In this document: one piece after another, positions 45,827 through 64,000 of the stretch
Layout: each line of letters opens with the position of its first letter
Numbering within the stretch: position 1 is the first letter of the stretch
Assembly: GCA_963708135.1 (NCBI GenBank)
Contig: OY970192.1
Location: 1,952,001 to 2,016,000, forward strand
Direction: 5' to 3'
Length of the DNA: 64,000 bases
Source of the DNA: an uncultured Gemmatimonadales bacterium
GTDB taxonomy: Bacteria > Gemmatimonadota > Gemmatimonadetes > Longimicrobiales > RSA9
Notes under the pieces: generated by a model
Databases searched by the model: none
Told to the model about the DNA's origin: nothing
The model's input: only the letters and a program-made list of their open reading frames with translations
Position numbers and translations under genes: made by a program

Positions 45827-46057
45827 ATGTCGAGCGATGAACTGGAAGCCGTGGCCTTGAGCTTGCCCGTGGAGCAGAGAGCGCGCCTGGCCCATAAGCT
45901 GATCGCGAGTATTGACGATGAGCCGGCCGGCCAGATCGAAGAGGCATGGATCCAGGAGGTTGATCGGCGCGCCGAAGAGGTGCTGAATCGCGAGGTCGAG
46001 ACTGTGCCGGGCGATGAGGTGTTCCGCAAAGCGTTTGCGAAGCGGCCAAGGAAGTGA
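45827..46057 (+). CDS. Addiction-module antitoxin (TIGR02574-like)
   Basis: ALSLPVEQRARLAHKLIASID..IEEAWIQEVDRR..ETVPGDEV; GTGA overlap with the toxin. Confidence 0.85.
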   Translation: MSSDELEAVALSLPVEQRARLAHKLIASIDDEPAGQIEEAWIQEVDRRAEEVLNREVETVPGDEVFRKAFAKRPRK

Positions 46058-46347
46058 AGCCTCCTCCGTTTCACTCCGAAGCGGAAGAAGAGATGAACGC
46101 CGAAGCCGATTATTACGACAGCAAGGCCGAGGGCCTGGGCTGGGATTTCTTGGTGGAAGTCCGCAGCGTGGCTATGGATGCCGCCAGGAACCCGGGCCGC
46201 GGGAGCCCGTACAGCCGGCACACGCGGCGGCGACCCCTCCGCCGATTTCCTCATTGGCTGGTCTATATCCCATCGCTACAAGGGATTACCATCGTTGCAG
46301 TCGCGCATCCCAGTCGCAAGCCCGGTTACTGGACGGATCGGCTCTGA
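46054..46347 (+). CDS. RelE/ParE family toxin
   Basis: FHSEAEEEM..AADYY-like start, GLGWDF, RRFPHWLVY, IVAVAHPSRKPGYW. Confidence 0.88.
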   Translation: MKPPPFHSEAEEEMNAEADYYDSKAEGLGWDFLVEVRSVAMDAARNPGRGSPYSRHTRRRPLRRFPHWLVYIPSLQGITIVAVAHPSRKPGYWTDRL

Positions 46348-46412
46348 CGAAAGCCGTGGCAGGCAGCGCCCGGGCGGCGAGAGCTGAAGGGTACTGGCGC
46401 TATGCTGCTCGC

Positions 46413-46652
46413 CGGCCCGCGGACGCTGAAGGCGGTGGTGTCGGCCAACTGAGGCGGCCGGCGCGCTGGCGGGACTAAGGCCTGACTCCTGGCGCCGGTC
46501 GGCGGACGCGCACCGCTGCCTGGCCACCTGGCGCGGGGACGGGCGCGAGGCCAGGCGGCTGATCGCGCGCTCAGCCGTCTTCCCGCCCCGCGAGTGCTCC
46601 GTGCGGCGACGGCGTCACCGTCAGCACCAGAACGGTCGAGCTGGCCAGCCCG
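46413..46652 (+). repeat. Direct repeat copy 2 (~240 bp)
   Basis: Offset 878 bp from copy 1; its right end encodes GLASSTVLVLTVTP on the minus strand, the C-terminal TM segment of the RND permease. Confidence 0.9.
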
Positions 46653-46698
46653 TGAGTTTGGGGTGAAAGCTGCACGGATGAGGCTCGCGACGCGGGCC

Positions 46699-46833
46699 TG
46701 CAGCCCTGACCGGAATAATCGTGGTCAGGGCTGCACGCATCAGCGCGTCCATCCAGCCGTGCTGTCCTGAGCCGAATCATTCTGGTCAGAGCGGCGGGCC
46801 CGAGCTGGGAAGCGCATGCGTGCAGCCCTGACC
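46699..46833. repeat. REP-like cluster of three TGCAGCCCTGACC units in alternating orientation
   Basis: 46699-46711 / 46723-46735 form a hairpin; 46723-46740 and 46816-46833 are perfect 18-bp inverted repeats. Confidence 0.75.
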
Positions 46834-46899
46834 CCAACGCGGACAGGTCGAGCGCGCCACTCCGCCCGCGGCGCCACTGTGGGATCCGCGCGTGTCGCC

Positions 46900-47035
46900 C
46901 GTCCAGCGCATCACCGTCGCCGCGTGAGCGGCCGTTTGCCGCATCCGTCGGAGACCATCGGCCCCGGGCTATTGAACAAGATCCTGCGCGATACCGGGTT
47001 CTCTCGGGACCGGCTCATCAGCGTGTTGTGGCTTC
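46900..47035 (+). pseudogene. HicA-like toxin C-terminal remnant
   Basis: Reads ..PHPSETIGPGLLNKILRDTGFSRDRL.., matching the HicA C-terminal pattern; no N-terminal GSH motif. Confidence 0.55.
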
Positions 47036-50000
47036 GCGGCCGCACGCCGCGGTGCGAGGAGGCAGTACAGCGCCGGCGTGACCGTGAGCACCAGCACGGT
47101 CGAGCTGGCCAGCCCGCCGATCAGCGCATAGCCCAGCGCGTTCCAGATGTTGGCATCGGCGTTGCCGCCCGACAGCACGAGGGGCAGCAGGCCGAAGATC
47201 GTCGTCGCCGTGGTCATGAGGATCGGCCGCGCGCGGTCGAGCGTGCCCTGCACCACCGCATCGCCCACGCGTACGCCGTCCTCGCGCACCAGGTGATTGA
47301 CGTGGTCCACGAGCAGGATCGCGTTGTTCACCACGATGCCTCCCATCATCACGACGCCCACCACCGCCTCGCGGGTGAAGCTCGCGCCGGTCAGGTAGAA
47401 GGTCAGGAAGACGCCGATGAGCGCCATCGGCACGGTCAGAAGCACCACGAACGGCTGGCGCAGCGACTCGAAGAGCGCGGCGGTCACCATGAAGACGAGC
47501 AGCAGCGAGACGAGCAGGACCCCGTACATCTGCCCCTGCTCCTGGTCGGACCACTGCCACGCCTGCCGGCCCGAGACGCTGTAGCCGGGCGGCAGGAGCG
47601 TGGTGGCGAGGACCGCGTCCTCGACCCGGTCGCCCAGCTTGGTCGGCCCCCGGAACTCGTAGCTCACGGTCCGCTCGTACTGCTGGTCCTCGCGCCGGAT
47701 GCTCGTCTGGATCGGCTGCTCATCGAGGGAGGCGACGTCCCCGAGGCGCACCGCCGGGCGGGGCGCACCCGCGCCGTCCGCGCCGCCCCCGCTGCCCGCC
47801 GCGCCGGCTCGGTCCGCCAGCCCGCCCGCGGCACCGCGGGTGGGTGGCTCCGCCGGCGCACGGTCGGTCGCACGCGGTCCGGAGGGGTTCGCCGCCTCTC
47901 GCCCGCCGACCGTGAGCAGCACGTCCATCAGGGTCTGCGTGTCCAGCGTCCGGGCACCGGCGCGCTTGACCGCGAGCCGGAGCTCGCGGCCGCCGACCTG
48001 AACGACGCCGCCGCCGGCGTCGCCTTCCGTGGCGGCGGCAACCTGCCGCACGACGTCGCGCGCCGTGAGCCCGTGCGTGGCGAGGCGGGGGCGGTCGAGC
48101 CGGAGCACCAGCTCGCTCGCGCGGTCGCTCTCGTACCACGCCCCGGCGGCGTTCGTGTCCACGTCGCCGATGCGCGTGAAGCGCTCGAGGCGCCGGCCCA
48201 GCGCCTCGGCGATCTCCCTGGTCTCGTCGAAGTTGTAGCCGCGCACCTGGATCGAGTACATCGGGGGGCTGCCGCCGCCGCCGTAGAAGGTCGGGCCGAA
48301 GCCGTAGACGTGCACCGTCGCGCCACCGAAGCGGTAGCTCTCGGCCACCAGCCGGTCCTTCAGCGCGAGCGGCACGGCCGTGTTCTCGAGCGAATCGGGG
48401 AACGTGACCCGGATGTCCGCGTAGCGGGCGCCGACGCGGGTGACGAACCGGGCGACCTGCGGCGCCCGCTCGAGCTCCGCCTCGAACCACCGTGCCAGCG
48501 CGTCCGTGTGCGCCAGCTCCTCGCCGCGCGGCATGAGGATCTGGATGTCGAGGTAGGTGCGCTCGCCTCCCCAGCTCCGCCACACCACGCCGCGCGTCAC
48601 GTCCTTCTGGAAGAGCCGGCCCGAGCCGGCGAGCAGCGCGAGCGCCAGCGTGATCGGTACCCAGGGCCTGCGCACCCCGAAACGAAGCGAGGCGACGTAG
48701 CCGCCGCGCAGCGCCCGGAGCGCTCGGCCACCGGCGCGGCGCAGAGCGCCGGGAGTGAGCGGGGCGGAGGCGTCGCCTGGCAAGGAATGCGAAGGGAGCG
48801 GGCCATCCCCGGGAACGCTTCCGGCCGGGCGCGGCTGCCCGAAGCGGCGCAGCAGCCGCGCGGCCATGGCGGGAATGAAGCTGAACGCCACCGCCGCGCT
48901 AGCCGCGAGGCTCAGCCCGACCACCGCGGCGAGGGGCACGTAGTAGGCGCGCAGGTCGCCCTGGAGATAGACGAAGGGGACGAGCACCACGACGGTCGTG
49001 AGCGTCGACGCCAGCACGGCCAGGACGACCTCCCGGCTGCCGCGCTCGGCGGCCGCCTCCGCCGCTTCGCCCAGCGATCTCCGCCGGTAGACGTTCTCGA
49101 GCACCACGATCGCGTTGTCGACCACCAGCCCGAAGCCCATGGCCAGCCCCATGAGCGTGAGCACGTTCAGGCTGAGGCCGCCGAGGTAGACCAGGTTGAG
49201 CGTGAGCAACGCCGAGAAGCCGATCGTCGCGAACGCGATTGCCGCCGACCGGAACGAGCGCAGGAAGGCGAGCAGCACCAGAAAGACCGCGAGCGCCGAA
49301 ACGAGGGCGCGCGTGCGCAGGTCGGTGAGCTGCGTGCGGATCGCCGCGCTCTCGTCCTGATCGAGGAGCAGCCGCGTGCCGGGCGGCAGCCCGCCGTGCG
49401 TCGCCGCGAGCCGTGCCTTCACGCGGTCCGCCACCGCGACCGCGTTGGTCCCCGGCTCGCGGTGTACCTCGAAGCTCACGGCCGGGAAGCCGTCGATCCG
49501 GTAATAGCTGTCCGCGTCCTCGTAGGTCTCGTGCACGCGGGCCAGGTCGCCGAGGCGGATCGCTACGCCGCCCCGCTCGACGAGCGGCGCGCGCAGCAGC
49601 GCCGGGACCGAGGCGACGCGGTCGCGCAACGTCACCGTGCGCACGCGGCCGCCCTCGTCCACCGCACCCGCCTCCCGCACCAGGTTGAGCCCGCGGACGC
49701 GGCGGGCGACCTCGTCCGGATCGAGCCCGAGCGCCTGCGCACGGCCCGGATCCAGCTCGATCTCGAGCAGGCGACGCCGGCCGCCGCGGACCTCGATCGC
49801 GCCGGCGCCCTCCACCTGCCTGAGCGCCGGCACGATCCTGTCCTCCGCATACGCGCGCAGCGCCTCCGGCGTGTACGGCCCCGTCACCGTGTAGACCAGG
49901 AACGGTTTGGCCTGCGCGCGCAGTGCCTCGGGGACGTACGGCTGGATGCGCGGCGGCGAGGCGCCCGCCGGCAGCTCGCGCGCGAGCGCCGCCAGCCGCT

Positions 50001-50334
50001 CGGAGAGCGCCAGGCGCGCGAACTTCATGTCCGTCCCGCGCGCGAACTGCACCTCGATCTGCGCCCGGCCGACGCCCGCCGGCGCGTCCGACACCGACGT
50101 GACCTTCGCCACGCCGCGCACCTCGTGGACGGCGGACTCGATCGGCGAGGTGACGAGCGCCTCCGTCGTGCGCGCGGAGGCGCCCGGCCAGAGGGCGGTC
50201 ACCGAAAGCTGCGGCAGCTCGGTATCCGGCAGCAGCTCGAGCGGGATGTTCCGCCACGCGGCGGCGCCGAGCACGCAGACGGCCAGGTAGGCCATCGCGA
50301 CCGTGACGGGGCGGCGGATCGAGAAGCGGATCAT
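46969..50334 (-). CDS. RND (AcrB-family) efflux permease, RND-A
   Basis: IRRPVTVAM, GLVVDNAIVVLENV, STLTTVVV, FESLRQP, RARPILMT, GGLASST. Confidence 0.93.
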   Translation of the reverse strand: MIRFSIRRPVTVAMAYLAVCVLGAAAWRNIPLELLPDTELPQLSVTALWPGASARTTEALVTSPIESAVHEVRGVAKVTSVSDAPAGVGRAQIEVQFARGTDMKFARLALSERLAALARELPAGASPPRIQPYVPEALRAQAKPFLVYTVTGPYTPEALRAYAEDRIVPALRQVEGAGAIEVRGGRRRLLEIELDPGRAQALGLDPDEVARRVRGLNLVREAGAVDEGGRVRTVTLRDRVASVPALLRAPLVERGGVAIRLGDLARVHETYEDADSYYRIDGFPAVSFEVHREPGTNAVAVADRVKARLAATHGGLPPGTRLLLDQDESAAIRTQLTDLRTRALVSALAVFLVLLAFLRSFRSAAIAFATIGFSALLTLNLVYLGGLSLNVLTLMGLAMGFGLVVDNAIVVLENVYRRRSLGEAAEAAAERGSREVVLAVLASTLTTVVVLVPFVYLQGDLRAYYVPLAAVVGLSLAASAAVAFSFIPAMAARLLRRFGQPRPAGSVPGDGPLPSHSLPGDASAPLTPGALRRAGGRALRALRGGYVASLRFGVRRPWVPITLALALLAGSGRLFQKDVTRGVVWRSWGGERTYLDIQILMPRGEELAHTDALARWFEAELERAPQVARFVTRVGARYADIRVTFPDSLENTAVPLALKDRLVAESYRFGGATVHVYGFGPTFYGGGGSPPMYSIQVRGYNFDETREIAEALGRRLERFTRIGDVDTNAAGAWYESDRASELVLRLDRPRLATHGLTARDVVRQVAAATEGDAGGGVVQVGGRELRLAVKRAGARTLDTQTLMDVLLTVGGREAANPSGPRATDRAPAEPPTRGAAGGLADRAGAAGSGGGADGAGAPRPAVRLGDVASLDEQPIQTSIRREDQQYERTVSYEFRGPTKLGDRVEDAVLATTLLPPGYSVSGRQAWQWSDQEQGQMYGVLLVSLLLVFMVTAALFESLRQPFVVLLTVPMALIGVFLTFYLTGASFTREAVVGVVMMGGIVVNNAILLVDHVNHLVREDGVRVGDAVVQGTLDRARPILMTTATTIFGLLPLVLSGGNADANIWNALGYALIGGLASSTVLVLTVTPALYCLLAPRRAAAKPQHADEPVPREPGIAQDLVQ

Positions 50335-50416
50335 GGGGCCAAGTGAGCCCCGGCGTACAAAGGTGCTATGGGTGCCGTCGGCCACGGCATCGCGCGGAGC
50401 ACCGAGTGGGCGTCGA

Positions 50417-51679
50417 TTAGCGCGGCCATTCCAGGCGGTAACGGCTGATCCGCTCGACGTCGAGGCTGTCGAAGGTGACCGCCCAGAGCGTGTCTCCCCG
50501 GATCACGACAGGCTGTTCGGTCGGGTACCCCGAGTAGCGGACTCCCTTCGGGAGCGCGACGCGTCCGAGCCAGCGGCCGTCGTGGGCAAAGACGTCGAAG
50601 GCGCCCTTCGAGGCAAGGTCCCAGGTGTGCTTCACGCCCGTGCGCGCCGCGACCTGGGGAGGCACCGTCGAAAGCACGCTTGGCTGGTTCGGCCAGACCC
50701 AGACGCGCCCGTCACCGGGGAATATGATTCGCGCGTAGGCCGGCCGCTCCTCGGGGAGATCGACCGGCACCTGGATCACCTTCTGTTCCAGGAACCGACG
50801 CTCAGCGCTCGAGGCGTGCACGGGAGTCCAGGCTCGACTGATCCTCAGGACACCCGGTGCCCAGCCCGATACGTCGAAGCTGTAGGTCCGCGGGCAACCG
50901 ACTGCCACGGCTCCCCTGGGGCTCATCGCCCACGTGACCTTGGGGACATAGGGCGCCCGTTGGTCCGGGTAGAACCCGACGCGCGCTCCGATCGTGTCGA
51001 GGGTCGGGCAGCCTACCTGAAAACGCGACTCAGCCCAGACGGTGTCCTCCAGCGCGCCGCTGGAATCGATGCGCGCGTAGATCGGCCGTGGAAACGTGAC
51101 CCGCAGATCGTCGTCCAGCGGGGGGACGAGTCCGACCCAGAGGGAACCGTCGCCATGGAAGGCGATGGTGGTCTCGCTGTAGGACAGCGGCATGCCTGCC
51201 GGCCTTGCGAAGCTGGTCACCCGACCCTGAGGATGGAAGATCTTCACCCGACTGTTGCCCAGGTCGTAGGCCGCCACGGATCCGTCCCGGCCGACCGACA
51301 TCCCGACGACGCCGTACACCTCCGCCGGACCCTGACCCAGGCGGGCGACAAGGCCTCCGTAGGTCCCATCGGCCCGGAAGCGCTGGATTCCCTCTTTCGG
51401 CTGGTACGTGTACACATCGCCGTTCGGACCCACGGCGAACGCGAGCACCTTGTAGAGGCTCGTCTCCGGCTCCCCTTCCACGGAGCCGTAGCTCCGGACG
51501 AGCTCGAGGCGCACCGTGCCCTCCGCCGCGGGACGGAGGTTGTGCACGGTGAGCGTGTCGCCGGCCCGGCGTCGCTCCACGCCGGATGAATTCGACCGTT
51601 CCGTACTCGAGCACGCGCCCGGCAGGCCGGCGCACATGAGGAAGACAACCAGGCCGCGGCCGACCCTGCGGCCCTTCAC
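50417..51679 (-). CDS. Six-bladed beta-propeller-like lipoprotein (cassette 1)
   Basis: Lipobox PGAC, GQGPAE motif, NHL-like repeats, C-terminal FDVF..DGRWLG and DSLDV. Confidence 0.78.
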   Translation of the reverse strand: MKGRRVGRGLVVFLMCAGLPGACSSTERSNSSGVERRRAGDTLTVHNLRPAAEGTVRLELVRSYGSVEGEPETSLYKVLAFAVGPNGDVYTYQPKEGIQRFRADGTYGGLVARLGQGPAEVYGVVGMSVGRDGSVAAYDLGNSRVKIFHPQGRVTSFARPAGMPLSYSETTIAFHGDGSLWVGLVPPLDDDLRVTFPRPIYARIDSSGALEDTVWAESRFQVGCPTLDTIGARVGFYPDQRAPYVPKVTWAMSPRGAVAVGCPRTYSFDVSGWAPGVLRISRAWTPVHASSAERRFLEQKVIQVPVDLPEERPAYARIIFPGDGRVWVWPNQPSVLSTVPPQVAARTGVKHTWDLASKGAFDVFAHDGRWLGRVALPKGVRYSGYPTEQPVVIRGDTLWAVTFDSLDVERISRYRLEWPR

Positions 51680-51769
51680 GCCGGGTCCTCGGAGCTACGC
51701 TTCCTCCGCCCGCGCCGGCCGACGGCCCTCTCGCCCGCCGCCTCCGAGATTGCGCGGCCGTGTGACCAC

Positions 51770-51840
51770 CCACCCGACGGGCACGCGGCCAGGTACACCA
51801 TCGGCGCGGCAACGGGGCGGCGGATCGACAAGCGGATCAT
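51770..51840 (-). pseudogene. Relic of the RND-A 5' end
   Basis: MIRLSIRRPVAAPMVYLAAC versus RND-A MIRFSIRRPVTVAMAYLAVC; nucleotide match to ~50280-50334. Confidence 0.8.
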
Positions 51841-51903
51841 GACTTCGAAGGAGTCTGGTCCGGCGCCCGCGACAGAAGCACAGTTTTCCACGGGGCCATC
51901 CCA

Positions 51904-53094
51904 CTACTGCTTCAGGATCCGGTATCCGACGACGGAGGGCACATCGAATTCGTCCTTGCTCACGCCCCAGAGCATCCCGGCGCCCGCCGCGTAGGGGACG
52001 AAGCCATGCGGCCCGTGGAGGGTAGCCATCGGCCGGCCGGTCCGCCCATCGAGGACCGTCAGGTCGTCGGTCCCGTAGGACGCGGCCGGCCGGGCAAGCC
52101 AGACGTCTCCGTTGGTGCCCACGAATACGCGATCGATCGGGGGCATGTACCTGGGGAGGTGGAGCGAGTCCCGGGCAAGGCGCATCGCCTCGTCCGACCT
52201 GGTACGCAGCAACAGGAATATCCGGGCCATGCGCTCTCGGACGCTGTCGGCGACGCGCTGGCCGATGGGCAGAGGCCGGTAATCGAGTGCTTCGTGGAAG
52301 ATCGTGTCCGCAGTGGGCCGGATACTCGTGACGTCGAATCGAGCAGCCCCTGCCGCCGTGGGTAGCCGCCGGGTTACCACCACGACCGCGCCGCCGCCCG
52401 GGGCGACCGCCACCACGTCGTCGCTTCGGAACGGATAAGGGAAGTTGATGATCGAATGACCGGTCCGGATGATGCCGTATGCGTGCTCGTTGCTCACCGA
52501 ACCGAGGCGGCCGATCTCGCCGCCCGCCGAATCCAGGAGCAGAAGCGGCAGGGCCGGTGACGAGCGCCTTCCCGTCGACGGGATCCCCAGGAAGCTTCCC
52601 CCGGCAAGCATTGCGGCGGGGGGCGTGGGCCGGGAAGAGAGCGGGAGCATCGGGCCGCGAACCGTAACATCTCGCAGCAACCGACCAGCGCTCGACCAGA
52701 GGGAAACGCGATACCTCGGCCGGTCTATAGTGACCAGCGTATCGCCGAGCCAACCGAGTGCGCGGAGCCCGCCGAATTCTCCCGGGCCGGCGCCACGACG
52801 GCCGAAGGAGCGCAGAAAACGGCCGCGCGCATCGAAGACCGCTACCGTCTGATCGAGGCGATCCGCCACGAACACGTCGCCCCGGCGCGAGACCGTGAGG
52901 TCGGCGATATCGCTCAGCACGAAGCTCGAGCCGCCATCGCCCGGGATTACGACGGCACGGTCGAGCCGCCATGTGGTGCCCTGGCCGTCAAGGGAGACTG
53001 CGGCAAAGGCTACGCCGATAGCAACCACAATCATCCCGACTGCGAGCCTCGCCGGCGCCTCCGCGAAAGGTCGGTACTTTATGGCTGTTGGCAC
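51904..53094 (-). CDS. Six-bladed beta-propeller-like secreted protein (cassette 2)
   Basis: Hydrophobic signal, VFDARGRFLRSFGRRGAGPGEF, PPID..GDVWL, C-terminal DEFDVP. Confidence 0.8.
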   Translation of the reverse strand: MPTAIKYRPFAEAPARLAVGMIVVAIGVAFAAVSLDGQGTTWRLDRAVVIPGDGGSSFVLSDIADLTVSRRGDVFVADRLDQTVAVFDARGRFLRSFGRRGAGPGEFGGLRALGWLGDTLVTIDRPRYRVSLWSSAGRLLRDVTVRGPMLPLSSRPTPPAAMLAGGSFLGIPSTGRRSSPALPLLLLDSAGGEIGRLGSVSNEHAYGIIRTGHSIINFPYPFRSDDVVAVAPGGGAVVVVTRRLPTAAGAARFDVTSIRPTADTIFHEALDYRPLPIGQRVADSVRERMARIFLLLRTRSDEAMRLARDSLHLPRYMPPIDRVFVGTNGDVWLARPAASYGTDDLTVLDGRTGRPMATLHGPHGFVPYAAGAGMLWGVSKDEFDVPSVVGYRILKQ

Positions 53095-53270
53095 TGATTG
53101 CCCTCCCGCCGCGTCACATTAGGTGGATCGCCTTGATCCGATCTGTGGCATTAGCAAATGCGGCACCACGACAGGAGCGCGGGCCGCGTGCGAGCCGGAG
53201 ATTACCTGGGAACCAGAACGGCCTCGACCGCGGGCGCGCCCAGAGGGCTTGGCCGCTCGAGTAACGCGGC

Positions 53271-53438
53271 GGCGCGGCCAGGCCGCAGCCGCACGTCGAG
53301 GACGGCCGTGTTCAGCCCGCTCGTCTCGTCGCTGCCGGCCACGGCGGCCTGGCGGCGGATGCGGACGAGGACCGAGGCGACGTCGCCGTCGCGCCGCAGC
53401 GCCGCCTCGACCCGCGCGGCCTTCTCCGACGTCGCCTC
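53271..53438 (-). repeat. 168-bp copy of an internal segment of RND-B (59584-59751)
   Basis: Ungapped match with 3 mismatches counted by eye. Confidence 0.92.
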
Positions 53439-53459
53439 CATGGTGGAGCCGCGGATCTA

Positions 53460-53715
53460 GTGAATCCTTTGCGACCGCGAATGCGTGACCCATGGCTGCG
53501 GCCATCACCCGAGCACCGAGAGGCACCGCGACAATCGCCTTTACCCTGCCACTGCGGCCGATCACGTTCCAAAGGCTGCGGCCGCGCACAACCTGCTCGC
53601 GTTGCAGCCAGATGGCGCCGTCATTGGCCCCGAAGCCGGCCGTCACCGGAGGGAGATGCTTCGGCAGGAACAGCGCCTCTCGGACCCGTTTCTCAGCCGC
53701 GCCGCGCGCCGTAAT
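53460..53715 (-). pseudogene. C-terminal fragment of another beta-propeller protein
   Basis: VREALFLPKHLPPV..DGAIWLQRE..WNVI..GRV..AKDSLD, resembling the C-terminus of cassette 2. Confidence 0.7.
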
Positions 53716-53737
53716 GGCCGGCCCGCGTGCATGCAGT

Positions 53738-54265
53738 CTAACTCCCCCGCCGCGATCCCCGCGGATTGTTGAGTTCCACGTTGTGCATCTCATCGTCCGC
53801 ACTGAACCCGTCGCCGGTGAGCCACGTTCCGTTCTGCTGGATCCTCGTCTTAACCGTGCTCCCCACACAATGCGCGCTCGGACAAAAGTAGAGGTTTTCC
53901 GTCTCGATCCGGCGGTTCCCCTCCCGGGTGACGAGTACGACGCTGCCGCGTGCCAGCACGGTCTCCGTTCGCTCATTCAGGGTCCCGGACCGGGAAGTCA
54001 GAGCCGCGGTTTCTCGACCGTCGGCGCCGAAGATCGTGACGCGCACCCCCCAAAGCTCGTCCCGCGCCGAGTCTCTGAAAGCGTAGGCGCTGTCCGCGGT
54101 GAGCACGCCCCGCCGGATCCCGCCCGGTGTGATATTGTGCTGCACACCAAACATCACCCAGTCGGCCGCCGACCCGCGCTCTCGGGCAGCAGCTGTCGGT
54201 TCGTGCGCCACCCCGCTGCACGCTGGCGCGATCAGGATTAAGCTGATCCGCGCGAGTCTCTTCAT
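53738..54265 (-). CDS. LptC-like lipoprotein
   Basis: Lipobox APAC; G.RRGVLTADSA, LTSRSG, ARGSVVL, IETENL, LTGDGF.AD jellyroll-like pattern. Confidence 0.65.
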   Translation of the reverse strand: MKRLARISLILIAPACSGVAHEPTAAARERGSAADWVMFGVQHNITPGGIRRGVLTADSAYAFRDSARDELWGVRVTIFGADGRETAALTSRSGTLNERTETVLARGSVVLVTREGNRRIETENLYFCPSAHCVGSTVKTRIQQNGTWLTGDGFSADDEMHNVELNNPRGSRRGS

Positions 54266-54489
54266 TCTCTGCCCTCTTCCGGGCTCCACGGGTTACGGAG
54301 CTACGGGAACTCAGGTACCACCGTCATCCCAAGCCCTCTCGCCGGATCCGCTTGAGGTCCAGCCTGCCGGCGATGAGCGGTCACAGCATGTACTCGCGAA
54401 ATACGTCGGGCTCTCCAGCCGGTTACCCCGAGCCGGATCTCCTTCGATTGCGCTACGCCATGAAGCCGACAGCCGCGGCGGAATCGAGG

Positions 54490-54653
54490 CTGCACAGGGC
54501 CAGCCAGCGCTGGCGGCGCCTCGATGGGGCTCAACTTTCCCCCCTCGTCCGGGCGGGAGTGCGGTTCGTCAACGGCGTCAGCCAGCAGCGAGAAGAGCTG
54601 CGGACGCGGGCCGCCTGATCAACCCCAGATCCTACAACGTTTGAGAATACCTC
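54490..54653 (+). mobile_element. IS256-family transposase 3' remnant with right end
   Basis: ..ASQRWRRLDGAQLSPLVRAGVRFVNG..AA* followed by cctacaacgtttgagaatacctc, resembling IS256 termini. Confidence 0.6.
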
Positions 54654-54947
54654 CGGCGGCGGAGTCCATATCCGATTGATGCTCAGCATGCTTGGGCCCA
54701 GCCGGCTGTGTGGAACGTGTACTCTCACGGATAGCCGAGCGCACCCTTTGCCCCACCACCCCCGTTGACCTCAGGGATCAGGGGCGCCCATGTTGTCGCG
54801 CCGGTGAACTCGTTGCCGGCGGCCCGTTGAAAGTCCCGCCTGTGAGCAGTTCCGCTCCACACGCAGTCGTTGACTACGAATTCGTCGAACACCACCAGCC
54901 TCTGAATGGGTGGACTATAGCGCTCAGGTGCCGCCGCGACGCGCCCG

Positions 54948-56423
54948 TCAGCGCCGCGGCAGTTCCCGTCCGGAACGCACAAAATCCGGTGACCTGGCTA
55001 TAGCCGTTCCCTCGACGCCCCCAGCCTTCGCGCGCGTGGAACAGGAACGCGTGGAGTTCGTGCACAATTCCCCTGCGGGACCTATAAGCCGTTCGCTGCC
55101 CTGAACATTCACTGACGCCCGACGAGCGTCGCTTCCGCAAACACACAGCACCCGCAGAATGTCCGTGTCCAACGAATCCCTGGCCTGCAAAATGACGAGG
55201 GTTGTAGACCCGGCCACGACCGTGCCGTCTGACGGGAGGCGCAGGCTCCCGAGAACTGCCCCGCTGGAGCGGAGTAGCAGCCAATCGGCGGACGCAGCCG
55301 AGGAGTGCGGCGTTTCCCGAACCCACACCGCGTGGTCCGAGGCCCCGATGATCGCATCGTAGCTAGGCAGAACATGGCTCGCCGGAGTGGCGTCCACCGC
55401 TCGCGCATAGGCCGCCCTGATCTTGACCCAGTCACCCGCCGAGAGCGCGCTACGCCATCGTTTCCACTTTTGCTCGGTCGACTGCTCCCGTCTCACGCGC
55501 TCGTGCTCGATATCCTCGTGGGTCGCAGGTTCGTGCCCTATCCTTACCGCCGTGGTTGGCAATTCCCTCCCCTGCATATCGAAGCGTCGCAGCTTCAGTG
55601 AATCACTCGTGCCAACCCACAGGGTCCGCCCCACCAACGCGGAATGCGTCCGCGGACCAAGGATCACGTCCTGGAAACTCCTGAAGCGGGGTTCGCTGTA
55701 CAGCCACGCTCGGGGATTCTGTTGCCGCGTCAGTACTCGGAGTGGGCGGGACCCGCCGTCAAAAAACGTGAACGTGGTCGTATCAATGACCGGCATCTCG
55801 CCCGGCCTGTCCTGAGCGCTGCCCCGGGAGCCTCGATCAGCAAAAACCACTGAACACCCGGAGACAAATCCGACCAACGTGGGCCGGAGCTGAGAGAATG
55901 CGGACAAAGAGGGATGCCACGTAGCAAGCACCGCACCTTGGCTAGAGAGGTGCGTAACTCTGACGAGCTGGACATCCCAGATACACAGGCCTCCAACTGG
56001 ATCGAAGCCGATCCTCCCAATGGCCTCCGTCATCCCGGGCCCGCTGCCGCGGCCCCCGAAACTGCGAAGGTACCTCCCGCCTAGCGTGAATAGCTCCACT
56101 CGCTGAGTGTACTCGTCAGCCACGGCGAGAAGGCTGTCGGCAAACATTGCGACGCCCCGGATCTTGCCGAAGGCTGCGGGACCTTCTGCCGCCGCCCCCC
56201 CGATCCTAGCTATCTCCCGGTATCGAAGCGCCGGGTATCCATCTGTCCGCATTTGGCCGTTGGCGGGATCCCCGCCTGCACACGCGCCTGCTGGCGCACC
56301 CAGAGCAACCCACAAGAGAACGAGGTAAGCCGAGCATCTGTGCCGGGTATCCGAGACTCTGGCGGCTCCAATGCGGCACGCGATCGGAAACTGACGCACC
56401 CTACCGCTGTTGCCGGCCCCCAA
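54948..56423 (-). CDS. Six-bladed beta-propeller-like lipoprotein (cassette 3); start and C-terminus uncertain
   Basis: Lipobox AGAC, GRYLRSFGGRGSGPG, LPSYD..AVWVRE, RDSLDT; visibly lower GC. Confidence 0.72.
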   Translation of the reverse strand: MGAGNSGRVRQFPIACRIGAARVSDTRHRCSAYLVLLWVALGAPAGACAGGDPANGQMRTDGYPALRYREIARIGGAAAEGPAAFGKIRGVAMFADSLLAVADEYTQRVELFTLGGRYLRSFGGRGSGPGMTEAIGRIGFDPVGGLCIWDVQLVRVTHLSSQGAVLATWHPSLSAFSQLRPTLVGFVSGCSVVFADRGSRGSAQDRPGEMPVIDTTTFTFFDGGSRPLRVLTRQQNPRAWLYSEPRFRSFQDVILGPRTHSALVGRTLWVGTSDSLKLRRFDMQGRELPTTAVRIGHEPATHEDIEHERVRREQSTEQKWKRWRSALSAGDWVKIRAAYARAVDATPASHVLPSYDAIIGASDHAVWVRETPHSSAASADWLLLRSSGAVLGSLRLPSDGTVVAGSTTLVILQARDSLDTDILRVLCVCGSDARRASVNVQGSERLIGPAGELCTNSTRSCSTRAKAGGVEGTAIARSPDFVRSGRELPRR

Positions 56424-56434
56424 ACATGACCTCC

Positions 56435-57095
56435 CAGTACTGTCCGGTTAAGCTGAGATGATGATGCCGTAACGGATTGCTACATGGTGCGTTACGACGT
56501 TTTGGTTGCCGCACCGATTTGAACTTCGCTCCTGCGCCGCTATCCTGCCCGGACCCCCCGGCCGGAGTAGCGCATGAATCCCGGAAGCACGGTTTTCTCA
56601 CAGGTGATGGCCCACGCATCTCGCTTCGCGCTCGATCGGTGCATCCGCCGCTACCACGGCAACCGGAGGGTCCGACGTTTCTCGTGTCGGGACCAGTTCC
56701 TCGCCATGGCCTTTGCCCAGCTCACCTACCGGGAGAGCCTGCGGGACCTCGAGGCCACCCTCGGGGCGGCCCCCGAGAAGCTGTACCATCTTGGCTTCCG
56801 TTCGCCGCTCTCTCGCAGCACGCTCGCCGATGCGAACGAGAATCGCGACTGGCGCATCTACGCCGATTTCGCTCAACGCCTGATCGCAGACGCGCGTCGG
56901 CTCTACGCCGACGACACGTTGGGGATCGAGCTCACGAACACCGTCTACGCGCTGGATTCCACCACGATCGACCTGTGTTTGTCGCTGTTCCCCTGGGCCT
57001 CGTTTCGTACGAGCAAAGGCGGCGTGAAGCTGCATACACTGCTCGACTTGGCAGGCAGGATCCCCGCCTACGCCTGGATCACGGACGCGAGCACC
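56435..57095 (+). mobile_element. Truncated IS4-family (DUF4372-type) element
   Basis: Left end cagtactgtccggttaag; ORF from 56574 has FSCRDQFLAMAFAQLTYRESLRD, SRSTLADANE.RDWRIY, DSTTIDLC, KLHTLLD, then breaks off before the rest of the DDE domain. Confidence 0.88.
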
Positions 57096-57365
57096 AAGGG
57101 AGCCAAGCCGCAACTGCGAATCAGCAACGCCCATGCCCCGTTTCTCCAGTTAAGGGCGCATTTTGTAACCGATGCTACAGCAATGCGTTGGGCCGTCCGC
57201 TTCGCCTCGCAGGGGGCATCACCGGACTGCAAGTCACGTTGCGGCGAACGGCGCTCGTCGGCGTGAGCATCTCTCGTAAGTCATTGCAGCGTAAGCGTCT
57301 GTCAGTGAGCGCAAAGACTAGCGAGAGGGTCCGCTAGAATCTTTGCAGCCCCAACAGTGCTGCAT

Positions 57366-58406
57366 CTACGGTGTGCGTCCGAATACCGATGCCTCAATCC
57401 CGAGTCTCTTCGCCCGTGCCTGCAAGGCCTGTCGCGACATGTTCAGCCTGCGTGCGGCCTCGGAGAAGTTCCAGCCGGCCGCTTGGAGGTGCTTCACGAG
57501 GAGCCGTTTCTCGAACTCTGCCATCAGGACCTTGTAACCGGCATGCCCGCCGCCGGGCCTGGCCGCGGCGGATCGCGGCCTGAGCGCCCTTTCCATATCG
57601 GCAGCCCCGATCTCGACGTGCTCGTCATCGCAGTGGAGAGAGGCACGCGCTAGCACATTCTGCAACTCGCGGACGTTCCCGGCCCACGGGTGCGCGAGGA
57701 GGAGCGCTATGGCGCCCGGTGTCGGGTGGAGCACCGGAATCGAGTACCGTTCGGCCTGACGCTCAAGAAACTCTTCCACGAGCAACGGGATATCGTCTGT
57801 TCGCTCCCGGAGCGGCGGCAGGTGAACCGCGATCACATCGAGGCGGTACCACAGATCGTCCCGGAACCGACCCGCCTCGACTTCCGCCGCAAGTGGCGTG
57901 TTGGTCGCGCAGACAACCCGCACGTTGACCGTTCGCGGCCGGACGCGTCCGAGCGGCACGACCTGCCCGGTCTCCAACACGCGCAGGAGCTGCCCCTGGA
58001 CCTCAAGCGGGAGTGAATTGATCTCGTCCAGGAACAGCGTGCCGCCATCCGCCTCCACGAATGCTCCCGGCGTATCGCGGTCGGCGCCGGTGAACGCACC
58101 CTTGACGTGGCCGAACAGGCGGCTCGCGGCCAGGTCGCGAAGGCCGGCGCCGTTCAGGCACACCAGCGGCCCCTTCCGCTTCCAGGCCGCGTGGAGTCCG
58201 CGGGCCGCCAGCTCCTTCCCCGTCCCGGTTTCCCCCACGAGGAGGACGGGCTCCGCCCTGCGACTCGCGAGCGCGAGCATCCGGCGTGCCTGCCGCATTG
58301 CCTCGCTGCCGCCCAGCAGCGCGGCGAACGGATCACCGTCCGGAGCTGAACGAACCTGCCCGAACGGCTGTGTTCGCCGGCTCTCCGGCACCTGCATGCT
58401 GGACAT
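57366..58406 (-). CDS. Sigma54-dependent enhancer-binding protein (AAA+ plus HTH, no sensory domain)
   Basis: [39 protein letters not shown], Fis-type HTH; AGGAGG before the ATG. Confidence 0.9.
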
Positions 58407-61400
58407 ACTCCTCCTGGGCTTTGGGCGCCCGAGCGGATTCCACCACCTCGTACACGACCGGCACCACGATCAGCGTCAACGTCGTGGACGTCACCAGCCC
58501 CCCAAACAGCGCGATGGCGAGCGGCGCCTGCAGCCCCGCGCCGGCGCCGATCCCGAGCGCCATGGGCAGCACCCCCAGCATTGTCGTCACGGAGGTGAGC
58601 ACGATGGGCCGCAGCCGCGCGCGGCCGGCGGCGTGGATCGCCTCGCGGAGTGGCATCCCCTCGCGGCGCAGGCGGTTGATGAAGTCGATCTTCACGACGG
58701 CGTCGTTCTCGGCGATGCCGGCGAGCACGACGAGGCCGATGAGGGAGACGCTGTTGAGGCCGGCGCCGCTGATCCAAAGCGTCAGGAATGCGCCGACGAG
58801 GGCGAGCGGCACGCTGAGCAGCATGATGACGGGTTGGAGGAAGCTCTCGAACTCGGCGGCGAGGATCATGTAGACGAGGAGCATGGCGACGGCGAAGGCG
58901 AACGCCAGACCGCGGAAGGCGCGGCGCATCTCCTCGTTCGCGCCGCCGACCTCGACCTGGACGCCGGCCGGCGGGTCCAGGCCGGTGAGCGCCTGGCGGA
59001 TCTCGCGCACCGCGTGATCGAGGCCGCCGCGCGCCACGTCCGCGAGCACGGGGACGACCTGCGCCTGGTTGGCGCGGCGCACCTCCGCGGGGCCGAGGCG
59101 GGTCCGGCTTCGGACCAGCTCCCGGAGCGGAACGCCGGCGACGCGCAGCAGCCCGAGCGCCTCCGCGGAGCGCCGGTCGGCGGCCGGCAGCCGGACCAGG
59201 ACGGGCACCTTGCGGTCGAAGTCGACGAGCCGGGTGGCGACCCTCCCGCGCGTGTAGTCCGCCACCGCGTCGGCGACGCGGCTCGGCTCGATGCCGTATG
59301 CGGCGGCGGCCTCGCGGTCGACGCCGATCTCGATCTCGGGCTGCCCCAGCTCCGTGCCGAGGCGCACGTTGGTGACGTCGCCGAGATGCGCGAGGCGGTC
59401 CTCGACACGGCGCGCATACGCCAGCGAGCCGTCCAGGTCCTCGCCCCGGACGCGGACGGCGATGTCCGCATTGCCGGCGCCGAGCAGCATGCCGAGCGAC
59501 GTCGCCTGACCCTGCTCGACGTCCACCTCGCCGGGCGGCAGTCCGCGCAGCCGCGCGCGCAGGCGGCGCACGACGGGAGCGGTGGCGCGGCCAGGCCGCA
59601 GCCGCACGTCGAGGACGGCCGTGTTCAGCCCGCTCGTCTCGTCGCTGCCGGCCACGGCGGCCTGGCGGCCGATGCGGGCGAGGACCGAGGCGACGTCGCC
59701 GTCGCGCCGCAGCGCCGCCTCGACCCGCGCGGCCTCCTCCGACGTCGCCTCGAGCGTCGAGCCGCGGGGCCGCTCGATGCGCACGCGGAAGGCGCCCTGG
59801 TCCACGCGCGGGAGCACGCTGCGTGGCAGCGCGAACCCGGCGAGGGCGCCCAGGCCGAGCAGCAGCGCGGCCGCGGCGAGGGTGCGGGCCCGCCGCCGGA
59901 GCGCGGCATCGAGAACGCGCTCGTAGGCGGCGGCGAAGCGGGCGTAGCCGCGGTCCACGGCGGCGAAGACGAGCGCCCGCGAGCCATCGCCCGCGGCCGC
60001 CCAGCGCGCCGCGAGCGCGGGCACCACCGTGAACGCCACCAGCACGCTGGCGAGCAGCGAGAAGGCCACGGAAAGCGAGAGCGCGCCGAACAGCCTGCCG
60101 GCCACGCCCTGGACGTAGATGATCGGCCCGAACACCGCCACCGTCGTGAGGGTGGAGGCGAGCACGGCGCGCTGGACCTCATCCGCGCCGAGCACGGCCG
60201 CCACGCCGGCCGGCCGCCCGGATTCGCGATGGCGCACGACGTTCTCGACCACGACGATCGCGTTGTCGACGAGCATGCCGATGCCGAGGGCGAGGCCGCC
60301 CAGCGTCATGAGGTTGAGCGTGGCGCCGGCGGCGTCCAGGAGCGAGAAGGCGGCGAGGACGGAAAGCGGGATGGCCGTGGCGATGGCGAGGGGGTAGCGG
60401 ACGTCGCCGAGGAAGAGGAAGAGCACGAGGAAGGCGAGCAGCCCGCCGAAGACGACCTGCTGCTCGACCGTGCCGATGGCGGCGCGGATGAAGCCGGCCT
60501 GACTGCTGGCCACGGCCAGCCGGACGCGCGGGTACTCGCGGCGGAGCTGGGCGAGCACCGCGTCCACGCGCGCCGCCACGCGCGCCGTGTTGGCGCCCGA
60601 TTCCTTGAAGACGAGCAGCGCGACGGCCTCCCGGCCGTCGTAGCGCACGATGGACTCCCGCTCCCTGAAGCCGTCCTCGACGGAAGCGACGTCTCCCACC
60701 GTGAGCGCGCCGCCCGCGCTGTCGTCTCCGGGCAGCGCCACCGCGCGGATCTCGCCGGCGCCGGCAAGCTCGCCCGAGGTGCGCAGCGGGTAGCGGAAGC
60801 GGCCGCGCAGGATCGTGCCGCCCGGCGCGCTGGCGTTCGCCGCGTCAATGGCGGCGGAGACGTCGCCGATGGAAAGGCCGTGACTCTCGAGCGCCGCGGG
60901 GTCGACGGCCACGTGGACCTCGCGCTCGAGCCCGCCGGTCACCGCCGCCTGCGCCACGCCATCGATCTGCTCGAGGCGACGCTTCACGACCGAGCGCGCC
61001 AGCGCCTCGAGCGCCGCCAGGTCGCCGCCGCCGCCGGCCACGGTCACGGCGAGGATCGGCTCGCTACGCGGGTCGGTGCGAAGCACGGCGGGCCGGTCCG
61101 CGCGCTCGGGAAGGCCGCCGGCCAGGTTGTCGAGCTTCTCGCGCACGCCGAGGACGGCGAAGTCCATGTCCGTGCCCCAGGAGAAGCGGAGCGTCACGAG
61201 CGAGATGCCCTCGCGGCTCGAGCTCTCGACGTGGAGCACGCCCGGCACGGTGGAGACGGCCTGCTCGATGGGCTCGGTGACGAAGCGGGCCACCTCCGCC
61301 GGCGCCACGTCGGGGTACGCGGTCGAGACCACGAGCTGCGGGTAGGCGATGTCCGGCAGCAGGTCGATGGGCAGCCGGCCAAGCGAGATCGCGCCGACCA

Positions 61401-61467
61401 TGGCCACGGCCAGGAAGAACATGGCCACGGCCACGGGCCGTCGGGCGGAGACGGAGGGAAGCGACAC
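58333..61467 (-). CDS. RND (AcrB-family) efflux permease, RND-B
   Basis: [56 protein letters not shown]. Confidence 0.94.
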
Positions 61468-61474
61468 GGCGCCC

Positions 61475-62845: not shown

Positions 62846-62852
62846 GGGGCCG

Positions 62853-64000
62853 CTACTCCGGCCGGCCGCCGGCGGCCGCGGCGTGCGCCACCAGCCGCAC
62901 GCGCGCGTCGTGGACGAGGGTGTACTGCCCGCCGGTCAGCACGATCTCGCCCGGGCGGACGCTGTCCGTCTCCGGGTTCGGCACGATCTCGACGAGGGAA
63001 TCGTTGGTCAGGCCGGTGGTGACGTAGCGCCACTTGGCGAGCCCGGAGGAGGGACCGTCCGGCGCGTAGACGAAGAGCATCGTGCGCCGGTCGCGCTCGA
63101 GGATGGCCGAGCGCGGCACGAGCACGCGGCCGGGCAGGCGGCGCGCCTCGAGCGAGACCCGGGCGTACATCCCCGGCAGGATGCGGCCGCGCGGGTTCGC
63201 CACCTCGACCGTGACCGTGGCCGCGCGGCTCCGCCGATCCACCTCGGGGTTGATCGCCGCGATCCGCCCCGCGACCGGGGCGCCGGGAAACGCCGAGAAG
63301 GCGACGCTCGCGCGGCCGCCGGGACGCAGGCGGGCGAGATCCCCCTCGAGCACCTGGACCTCGACCCGGATCGGATCCACGTCGAGCACCGTGAGCAGCG
63401 GATCCCCCGGCCGGACCCACTGCCCCGGCGTCACCTTCACGTCCGCCACCCGGCCCGCGAACGGCGCCGTCACGCGCGTCTCCGCCAGCCGGTAGGCCGC
63501 CCGCCGCACCGCCACCTCCGCCGCGTCCAGGCCACTTCTGGCCCGCGCCGCCTCCGCCCGCTCGGCCCGCACCCGCGCGTCGTCGATCCGGTCGTCGAAG
63601 AGCGTCAGCTCGCGGTAGCTGGCCTGCGCCTGCCGCAGCTGCGCCGCCGCCGCGTCCCGGTCCAAAACGTATTCCGTCGAGTCCAGCGTGACGAGCGCGC
63701 GCCCGGCCGCCACGCTCGCGTCCTCCCCCGCCGAGACGGCCAGCACCCGCCCCGCGACGCGCGCCAGGAGGACCGCCGAGCGCGCCGGCGCGGCCTCCGC
63801 CGCCGCGGACACCGACAGGACCAGCGTCCCCCGCTCCGCCGGCACGCCCTCCACCGGGATGGCGAGACCGCTGCCCGCCGACTCGCGGCCCGCGTCATCG
63901 CCCGGCGAGACCATGGACGCCGCCGCGGCGTCCAGGTCATCCCCGCCCGCATCCGCCGCGGCCGAGTGCCGATGGAGGACGAGGAACCCGAGGAGAACGA
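62853..64000 (-). CDS. RND periplasmic adaptor (MFP); 5' end outside window
   Basis: ARVAGRV..V..G..L lipoyl half-motifs, VTAPFAG, ILPGMYA, VPRSAI; frame stays open to the window edge through a TM segment. Confidence 0.9.
   Translation of the reverse strand, partial: VLLGFLVLHRHSAAADAGGDDLDAAAASMVSPGDDAGRESAGSGLAIPVEGVPAERGTLVLSVSAAAEAAPARSAVLLARVAGRVLAVSAGEDASVAAGRALVTLDSTEYVLDRDAAAAQLRQAQASYRELTLFDDRIDDARVRAERAEAARARSGLDAAEVAVRRAAYRLAETRVTAPFAGRVADVKVTPGQWVRPGDPLLTVLDVDPIRVEVQVLEGDLARLRPGGRASVAFSAFPGAPVAGRIAAINPEVDRRSRAATVTVEVANPRGRILPGMYARVSLEARRLPGRVLVPRSAILERDRRTMLFVYAPDGPSSGLAKWRYVTTGLTNDSLVEIVPNPETDSVRPGEIVLTGGQYTLVHDARVRLVAHAAAAGGRPE

Follow-up and report, generated by a model that had tools for sequence, protein, structure and literature searches.

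Heteromeric RND pumps of the HAE1 type are exemplified by MdtABC-TolC of Escherichia coli, which likewise has two different RND genes and a gene for a membrane fusion protein (MFP) in one operon; both MdtB and MdtC keep the Asp-Asp/Lys proton relay, and the accessible part of one source gives a division of labour between an energised and a cargo subunit as probable (PMC4338810). In CusCFBA, an HME pump with metal cargo, the soluble periplasmic binding protein CusF feeds the tripartite pump, according to the available text of PMC8277102. Six-bladed beta-propellers of the DUF5128, DUF4934, DUF4221 and TolB_like type have no function attached to them in the papers covered by our literature search, and one of its queries returned no paper that mentions NVEALA, DUF4221, DUF4934 or DUF5128 by name; in the accessible part of one paper a propeller figures solely in a table of expression data (PMC11402942), and BamH, from the BAM complex of Bacteroidota, is also described as a six-bladed propeller in the portion available of 10.1101/2025.01.31.636011. 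A pump–propeller system was not described in the literature searched, which covered few subscription papers and no supplements. What is new here is the link of this propeller family to the RND pair described below.

The window, a stretch of 64,000 nt from a soil bacterium, contains a two-RND efflux pump locus whose row of genes lies entirely on the minus strand, with an IS4 piece on the plus strand (Table 1). The gene order given by the first-pass annotation was recovered with every listed part in its place, as was the lower GC content of the middle region (0.62–0.69 vs 0.71–0.78 over the pump genes), which is also apparent at third codon positions (GC3 of 0.70–0.84 vs 0.91–0.95).

Table 1. 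Features of the two-RND locus and its flank (positions in the window).
Feature	Position	Strand	Evidence or remark
Membrane fusion protein (MFP), 399 aa	62853-64052 (start just beyond window)	-	TIGR01730 184 bits, cut-off 95
TolC-type outer membrane channel, 456 aa	61475-62845	-	PF02321 176 bits
RND-B permease	58333-61467	-	PF00873 801 bits
Orphan sigma54 EBP, AAA+ and HTH only	57366-58406	-	N-terminal domain absent; overlaps RND-B end
IS4 element, left part, right side cut off	56431-57095	+	NF033592
Propeller P3	54948-56423	-	Own profile 280-295 bits (P3 in seed); BLAST to relatives' propellers
IS256-type end relic	54490-54657		About 77% to three sites beside IS256-type transposase ORFs
Second LptC-like gene	53738-54289	-	TIGR04409 61 bits
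P2-type propeller, C-terminal fragment	about 53455-53697	-	34% to P2 over 82 aa; profile 49 bits
RND-B relic, 189 nt	53266-53454	-	96% identical to internal RND-B 59579-59767
Propeller P2, DUF5128 family	51904-53094	-	PF17170 28.9 bits, cut-off 22.9
RND-A start relic, 61 nt	51781-51841	-	82% copy
Propeller P1	50417-51679	-	Atlas features and own profile
RND-A permease	46969-50385 (likely start 50334)	-	PF00873 565 bits
Two 240-nt repeats (93%) with RND-A 3'-end copies	45535-46652		Flank addiction-antitoxin/ParE module
Addiction-antitoxin/ParE module	45716-46347	+	Between the two 240-nt repeats

Both permeases match PF00873 over their full length (cut-off 28 bits) and are of the AcrB/AcrD/AcrF type. 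They remain well below the NCBIfam equivalog cut-offs for MdtC (320/402 against 1774) and MdtB (298/401 against 1584), as well as that of TIGR00914 for CusA/CzcA heavy-metal RND proteins (290 and 500 bits against 701). In a FastTree phylogeny of 54 sequences, RND-A and RND-B are sister clades apart from MdtBC (support 0.99), indicating a separate duplication. The pair occurs in Gemmatimonadota, Bacteroidota, Rhodothermota, Balneolota and Acidobacteriota, and it constitutes a subfamily of its own, found in several phyla and almost only together with propellers, a tie that sets it apart from the Mdt pump. The relay is also altered with respect to that of MdtB and MdtC: TM4 reads Asp-Asn in the two permeases, and position 940 is an Asn (AcrB numbering, where AcrB has D407, D408 and K940). 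When aligned to AcrB, MdtB, MdtC and CusA, RND-B keeps the TM4 Asp and has Asp941 and Lys945 in TM10, while the TM10 relay positions of RND-A have neither Lys nor Asp. By analogy with the Mdt pump, we infer that RND-B would be the energised subunit, with the proton relay, and RND-A the cargo-side subunit. Of 58 tier-1 orthologues of RND-B, 49 have the TM10 Asp/Lys pair and seven have lost both residues at once, so that it may instead be a dispensable ion pair. The two permeases define an RND subfamily whose proton relay is altered and which is unlikely to be a simple exporter of drugs.

The three intact propellers were correctly described as very divergent, P1 and P3 being 19 and 17% identical to P2, respectively. 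The G-x-GP-G/A and C-terminal D-x-L/F-D motifs that they were said to share are indeed present; these are family-wide. As read from the sequence, P2 has a plain signal peptide, and the two lipoboxes proposed for P1 and P3 are plausible, if non-canonical, making both proteins plausible lipoproteins. Only P2 has a Pfam match; P1 is assigned through an Atlas feature score of 0.97 to clusters in which 49–84% of members are DUF5128, and P3 through a profile whose seed contained P3 itself. Its C-terminus runs about 55 aa past the normal end of the family, and P3 is possibly decaying. P1, P2 and P3 are the only full-length members of the family in the 5.4 Mb genome and all of them lie between the permeases, which is more than chance. 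The structure prediction that the first-pass annotation had suggested was run on P2 and gave a six-bladed NHL-type propeller (alignment-based AF2 model, pLDDT 88.7, used in place of a single-sequence fold of pLDDT 37.7), the fold and family of the DUF5128/DUF4934/DUF4221/TolB_like propellers. The best fold match of the model was an NHL domain (Z 20.4, rmsd 3.8, 260 residues aligned), and it also matched PDB entries 3s9j (BVU_1028; Z 17.5, rmsd 4.3, 303 aligned) and 4raa (BF0058; Z 15.8, rmsd 4.7, 283 aligned), the NHL-type peptide-processing enzyme PAL (Z 16.6, rmsd 4.3, 262 aligned) and the DUF4221 fold. Sequence searches of the PDB matched mostly the N-terminal NHL-like part, and against 1.84 billion proteins the profile drew so many long NHL-repeat proteins that the outcome could not be used. 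Gly, Pro, Trp and Asp make up most of the conserved columns of the family, whose members share a GxGPGE loop and a C-terminal strand; no residue in these columns is conspicuous as catalytic or metal-binding.

Pump and propellers go together far beyond chance in several phyla. Propellers were found in 120 of 125 pump-bearing genomes of Gemmatimonadetes against 13 of 111 lacking the pump, and at least three propellers in 113 and two of these genomes, respectively; in Bacteroidota the figures were 21 of 28 and 7 of 123, although all these tallies overstate independence because the genomes are related. Within nine genera of mixed pump status, carriers averaged more propellers in seven and there was a tie at zero in the other two. 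The tallies leave out fifteen genomes of other classes that encode a related RND, its status uncertain, and gave no match to the propellers. For Bacteroidota we used an exact RND-B motif, because the RND-B profile A2 separated the subfamily poorly there; this motif misses variants, and three genomes with a propeller near a high-scoring RND (G290, G295 and G428) had no match to it.

The position of the propellers is another matter. The first-pass annotation considered them to be carried between the permeases, an arrangement seen in only 12 of 66 relatives (none there in the other 54) and in none of 20 fetched loci of a second clade. A propeller lies beside the pump in 25 of 66 loci of the first Gemmatimonadota clade, 15 of 20 of the second and 32 of 62 further loci, and 41 of the 66 relatives have none within 2.5 kb of it. 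Most propellers are scattered, with 4 to at least 46 per genome and unrelated neighbours; no common operon partner emerged from the 58 of 124 flanking ORFs that were run against Pfam. RND pairs devoid of propeller genes and propellers away from RND loci had been named beforehand as arguing against a system, and both are literally what we observed; it is the co-occurrence in genomes that rescues the link. Likewise, a conserved pump with variable propellers was borne out, but the idea of interchangeable cassettes was not, since many of the propellers found beside pumps belong to inherited clades that are specific to their position.

Small secreted Cys-rich peptide genes adjoin propellers in eight Gemmatimonadota pump loci and, together with NVEALA, redoxin, MauE and S26 genes, in loci of Bacteroidota. 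The NVEALA (PF14055) cassettes of Bacteroidota have the propeller family in common with our locus, and in many loci also the RND pair; they differ in having the peptide, redoxin and S26 genes, none of which was detected here. We found no Sec-exported Cys-rich peptide gene among ORFs of at least 25 aa at 53090–57400, nor by a signal-peptide scan of 45400–58400; the spot upstream of P3 is occupied by the truncated IS4, and between the permeases there are no CxxC redoxin, MauE or S26 genes, the space being filled by other genes. Upstream of 49 propeller matches away from the pump there was a single doubtful candidate, so the peptide cargo of most Gemmatimonadota propellers is putative. The suggestion that propellers are receptors or immunity factors for peptides thus finds backing in the peptide genes of relatives and none at the locus itself.

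Modelling predicted a contact between propeller and pump. Two periplasmic parts of an RND-A orthologue and a propeller encoded between the permease genes of a related locus (L052) gave a predicted complex of 0.53, the best control being 0.00; runs agreed in at least 63% of contacts and the partners had pLDDT of at least 84. Of 157 solved pairs 116 attained the mark, as did 2 of 215 mismatched ones; only 18 of those solved pairs, along with both mismatches, did so at 0.60 or below, so that the predicted contact of the propeller with RND-A is weak. In the predictions it was lost once the second RND-A part was replaced. An in-frame RND-A–propeller join exists at one locus, L063, and is absent from a genome of the same genus.

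At a probability of roughly 45%, our main reading is that the propellers are periplasmic capture adaptors that supply a single common pump with peptides, in the service of export or immunity. The locus would represent an old trans-envelope export system made of an MFP, TolC, two different RND subunits and DUF5128-type six-bladed propellers, in which, after the MdtB2C model, RND-B would carry the proton relay and RND-A would face the cargo. A Sec-exported propeller would hold a small putative peptide in its funnel in the periplasm, dock on RND-A and unload it towards TolC, in a manner similar to that of CusF in the Cus system, with the difference that here many divergent 40-kDa propellers would deliver an inferred peptide cargo. 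One pump would serve every propeller in trans. With a Cys-rich Sec peptide gene next to the propeller, it would be the cell's own peptide that is exported; propellers with no such neighbour, as here, would most likely bind peptides of foreign origin, for immunity or clearance, or work on undetected ones. The layout, with no homology claimed, resembles that of LanI/LanFEG lantibiotic immunity, in which a peptide-binding lipoprotein is paired with an expelling transporter in Gram-positive ABC systems.

Two other readings we hold to be unlikely. The propellers themselves, or lipid-anchored forms of them, might be the cargo, moved by the heteromeric RND-MFP-TolC assembly from the periplasm to the surface or the medium in an RND-driven protein secretion. 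The pump tracks propellers and not peptides, a single pump coexists with up to at least 46 of them, the shared GxGPGE loop and C-terminal strand could be recognised by it, and the weak predicted contact with RND-A would fit equally well. However, this leaves the peptide, thioredoxin and signal-peptidase neighbours unexplained; Sec-exported proteins fold in the periplasm and the TolC lumen is narrower than a folded 40-kDa propeller, and we know of no RND that exports proteins of this size. About as improbable is that the pump alone exports peptide signals or antimicrobials, and that the propellers act apart from it in the same pathway, as receptors or maturation enzymes, and never touch it. The peptide–propeller–redoxin cassettes adjoining the pump in Bacteroidota and some Gemmatimonadota, and the inclusion of PAL among NHL-type propellers, agree with this idea, but genomes without a detected peptide still keep pump and propeller arrays, the family lacks evident catalytic or metal-binding columns, and the RND-A contact, weak as it is, and its predicted loss upon replacement of the second RND-A part point the other way. 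A third alternative, a common efflux operon for small molecules with an insertion hot spot at its internal junction and unrelated propellers as passengers, would suit the low-GC middle of this genome, with its IS pieces, orphan EBP, spare LptC and pump-gene relics, and the many relatives with no propeller near the pump, but is strongly disfavoured by the co-occurrence, which is seen in two phyla and also inside genera, and by the repeated adjacency in separate pump clades.

Returning to the adaptor reading, a broader proposal, to which we give slightly less credence, is that the RND pair is a two-step polypeptide secretion machine: Sec would bring the substrate into the periplasm, from where a heteromeric RND-TolC pump driven by protons would take it across the outer membrane. 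Its substrates would be disulfide-bonded mini-proteins delivered by propeller adaptors, or the propellers; the large orphan propeller arrays would be a mobile library of specificity or immunity modules common to Bacteroidota, Gemmatimonadota and Acidobacteriota, with Bacteroides thetaiotaomicron probably among the carriers. DUF5128-type propellers, a large family with no function assigned so far and many copies in numerous Gemmatimonadota genomes, gain a specific partner machine through the link to the pump. If the pump moves adaptor-delivered peptides, this would be a new outer-membrane route for Sec-exported mini-proteins. The accessible part of a table in PMC10434189 lists, for B. thetaiotaomicron, an O-antigen-ligase family protein (BT0662), a propeller (BT0664), signal peptidase I (BT0667) and an RND adaptor (BT0669), a similar gene row through which a model gut bacterium could serve to test the idea. 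Cultured carriers of the pump include Prolixibacter bellariivorans and Dysgonomonas macrotermitis (loci L188 and L125).

The remaining genes of the locus look incidental. The sigma54 EBP (PF00158 180 bits, PF02954 39 bits) has a GAFTGA motif and a Fis-type HTH, and its best matches, 42–51% identical, are mostly proteins of about 450 aa with receiver domains. The first-pass annotation placed the system under this sensor-less activator; nothing ties it to the pump and it is probably an incidental passenger. We rejected it as a regulator because EBP-like genes are so rarely near the pump (2 of 100 other Gemmatimonadota stretches, L021 and L042; also L118 and L144). One-mismatch matches to the sigma54 −24/−12 promoter numbered two in the whole window against 2.8 expected, with none upstream of locus genes (the region upstream of the MFP gene lies outside the window), and a promoter and terminator scan gave no signal above shuffled sequence. 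The LptC-like gene is 57% identical to another LptC of the same genome; it was also discarded as a part of the system, no other pump locus having an LptC label, and this copy looks incidental.

The P2-type propeller fragment is cut by the 189-nt RND-B relic, and the left end of the IS4 piece, which is found at seven other places of the genome with 99–100% identity, lies 7 nt from the P3 start. Array growth through recombination in pump genes was rejected as a general rule: clear relics appear in only one of 85 loci tested, the present one, and the rearrangement linked to them is therefore a local feature. These relics, the RND-A 3'-end repeats and the P3 extension were absent from the parts listed in the first-pass annotation. 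The relics mark a rearranged copy of the system in which the IS pieces, EBP and LptC look incidental, and the copy in the window is a rearranged, possibly decaying example.

Of the 251 genomes searched, 236 belong to the class of the window genome and were scored, taking RND-B as present at an E value of 3e-60 or better, at a gap in the scores (next best 4e-56), and propellers at 1e-35 or better. Propellers were found in 120 of the 125 pump-positive genomes versus 13 of the 111 pump-negative ones, and three or more in 113/125 versus 2/111; the unpublished genome G183 is among those negative for both, and four of the five pump-positive exceptions contain weaker propeller matches in the pump locus (L064, L109, L110 and L111). 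Because related genomes are not independent, we compared within genera: in nine genera of mixed pump status, pump carriers averaged more propellers in seven and tied at zero in two. The 15 genomes of other classes (group G042-G064), which had an ambiguous best RND and no propeller match, were left out; their RNDs fall near the subfamily threshold, mostly with the same genes retrieved by the RND-A and RND-B queries, and possibly represent a related, undivided ancestor-like group.

A GTDB motif scan located the same RND-B, among the matches listed, in Bacteroidota, Rhodothermota, Balneolota, Acidobacteriota (including Aminicenantes) and Latescibacterota. From 79 loci with flanks (13 from Gemmatimonadota, 4 without RND), the 62 others were counted, and 32 of these RND loci contained DUF5128, DUF4221 or TolB_like propellers or profile matches. 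Among 151 Bacteroidota genomes, PF17170 was present in 21 of the 28 with the RND-B motif (20/27 leaving out the seed genome) versus 7 of the 123 without it. The link of the RND pair to the propeller family, proposed in the first-pass annotation, is thus well supported as co-occurrence by genome in two phyla; the location of propellers between the permeases is not usual.

In a tally of 66 relatives with both permeases seen, including several contigs that end early, a propeller lies between the permeases in 12 (one a weak match); in 13 the nearest is outside the pair but no more than 2.5 kb from the pump, and in 41 none is that near. Within a second, distant pump clade, none of 20 fetched loci has a propeller between the permeases and 15 have one nearby, mostly just upstream of the membrane fusion protein (MFP) gene. 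The propeller count of a genome ranges from 0 to at least 46, and the genes flanking those away from the pump are unrelated (58 of 124 flanking ORFs scanned). In a tree of 99 propellers, most between-gene ones group together in a clade, and most of those downstream in a second clade, so the 12 between-permease cases represent few events. Therefore, the array between permeases, initially taken as the mark of the system, does not define it. Salinivenus locus L135 has five propellers between the permeases, and genomes G279 and G282 mirror the window genome, with the sole PF17170 match of the former and all six of the latter at the pump. In stretches L235 (from G027), L238 and L250, far from the pump, 3 to 8 propeller ORFs stand in tight tandem arrays, and no peptide genes were detected in these arrays.

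A FastTree phylogeny of 54 sequences from a chosen subset of loci, rooted on CusA, placed RND-A and RND-B as sister clades (0.99), apart from AcrB, MdtB/MdtC and CusA. Both have the first TM4 Asp, and Asn at AcrB positions 408 and 940; Asp941 and Lys945 are present in 49 of 58 tier-1 RND-B orthologues and absent from RND-A, which in the second clade additionally lacks the TM4 Asp. By analogy with MdtB2C, as outlined in passages of PMC4338810, RND-B would be the energised subunit and RND-A the cargo-facing one. Asp941 and Lys945 were both lost in seven RND-B orthologues and one of them in two; given the joint losses, they may form no more than an ion pair. An additional MFP and/or RND often follows the second-clade pumps (L092, L095, L105, L108); in L092, L095 and L108, motif or tree assigns this RND to the MdtB/MdtC type. 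These loci often gave no TolC match upstream of the RND pair.

The two periplasmic parts of RND-A from locus L052, modelled with its between-gene propeller and with the window's own proteins as alignment rows only, gave a predicted-complex score of 0.53 (median of three; best control 0.00), with runs agreeing in at least 63% of contacts and partner pLDDT of at least 84. The calibration mark was reached by 116/157 solved versus 2/215 mismatched pairs, although the L052 job differs from the calibration and pairs at 0.60 or below comprise 18 solved and both mismatches. The prediction lends weak support to docking of the propeller on RND-A. In L063, a basic linker followed by a lipoprotein-like signal connects RND-A, still in frame, to a complete propeller; in L058, from the same genus, RND-A ends normally, without this join. 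We favour, at a probability of about 0.45, a role of the propellers as adaptors that would capture peptides in the periplasm and pass them to a single shared pump, much as in the CusF-fed pump (portions of PMC8277102) and in the style of MdtBC (PMC4338810, same passages), without belonging to either family. That propellers are themselves the pump cargo, which a contact with RND-A would also accommodate, seems unlikely. We found no description of the RND pair/propeller system in the literature searched.

Bacteroidota-group loci encode small Sec-exported Cys-rich peptides (NVEALA in four), together with redoxin, MauE, S26 signal peptidases, O-antigen-ligase/TPR proteins and DUF1573. The S26 peptidases recur inside pump loci L122, L125, L133, L145, L152 and L160, and O-antigen-ligase/TPR membrane proteins inside L122 and L125, a hint of dedicated processing or glycosylation of cargo. 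Similar peptides, chosen by eye from filter output, lie beside propellers in eight Gemmatimonadota pump loci (L027, L037, L056, L060, L102, L108, L109, L110). The filter demands a hydrophobic N-terminus and two Cys, and would therefore miss other peptides. No Cys-rich secreted peptide genes were found in the window locus, and 49 propeller matches away from the pump, spread over 20 stretches and many of them in tight tandem arrays, gave one doubtful candidate; the pump is thus more closely associated with the propeller than with the peptide. A peptide pathway in which propellers never contact the pump would suit peptides beside propellers, but not the weakly predicted docking, and we consider it about as improbable as propellers being cargo. 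The remaining probability goes to other substances as pump cargo, for example lipids or small molecules. The secreted proteins of L056 and L060, upstream of a distinct propeller clade adjoining the MFP, represent another kind of partner, in addition to the short peptides rich in Cys. Judged from a table in PMC10434189, the B. thetaiotaomicron gene row BT0662-BT0669 may be a similar locus.

The window sequence confirmed the minus-strand gene order first read: MFP, TolC, RND-B, sigma54 activator, IS4 left part, P3, IS256-type end, LptC copy, propeller fragment, P2, P1, RND-A. All four pump genes are intact, with GC3 of 0.91-0.95, and genes in the middle show 0.70-0.84. P2 is over the DUF5128 cut-off, and its alignment-based model (pLDDT 88.7) matches NHL-type six-bladed propellers and Bacteroides proteins 3s9j and 4raa; P1 scored 0.97 against Gemmatimonadota clusters, most with DUF5128 in 49-84% of members. 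By six-frame scan, the only full-length family members in the whole 5.4-Mb genome are P1, P2 and P3, plus the fragment, with a weaker NHL-repeat protein elsewhere. The names of its homologues place the genome, by inference, in the phylum Gemmatimonadota. P2 and homologues P0002-P0005 and P0015 form a soluble subgroup without lipobox, with Gln at the predicted mature N-terminus or close to it. A regulatory role for the sigma54 activator found no support, since such activators are rare near other pumps. No -24/-12 match precedes any locus gene within the window. It has 346 aa and no N-terminal domain, and its best matches (42-51% identical) are mostly of ~450 aa with receiver domains; this orphan is probably a passenger, perhaps truncated.

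Coordinates of features in the window and in pump loci of relatives
Sequence	Position	Strand	Feature
Window	44838-45449		lexA, downstream of the pump
Window	45535-46652	+ (gene pair)	Two 240-nt repeats (93%), each with a copy of the RND-A 3' end, enclosing an addiction-antitoxin/ParE pair; immediately after lexA
Window	53266 and 53454		Junctions spanned by short contigs of run X1
Window	56431-57095		Truncated IS4 copy
L063	12765-17297	+	RND-A–propeller join, 1510 aa
L056	18283-18609	-	Secreted protein, ~110 aa, three Cys, homologous to that of L060
L060	11431-11778	-	Secreted protein, ~110 aa, three Cys, homologous to that of L056

The window locus shows signs of REARRANGEMENT. The propeller fragment is cut off by a 189-nt stretch that shares 96% identity with an internal part of RND-B, P2 and P1 are separated by a segment holding a 61-nt copy of an RND-A start, and the RND-A 3' end is copied inside the repeats flanking the ParE-type module. 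The truncated IS4 ends 7 nt from the start of P3, a position taken by a peptide gene in relatives, and P3 extends ~55 aa beyond the usual family end. Misassembly is unlikely because contigs of X1, possibly the source sample, span the junctions. Clear relics of the pump-gene kind appeared in one of 85 loci tested, that of the window. We infer that recombination brought parts of related pump loci into it, with the P1–RND-A head arriving last. Such relics would fit a mere insertion hot spot with propellers as passengers, a reading that the co-occurrence by genome makes very improbable. The IS4 family has seven other matches in the genome, at 99-100%, and was therefore recently active. Comparison of the lexA site in L012, L013, L035 and L049 showed genes after RND-A that, as judged from translations, resemble gltX, a lexA-like gene and tadA in several relatives; together with lexA in the window, this indicates that the pump is at a long-held chromosomal site.
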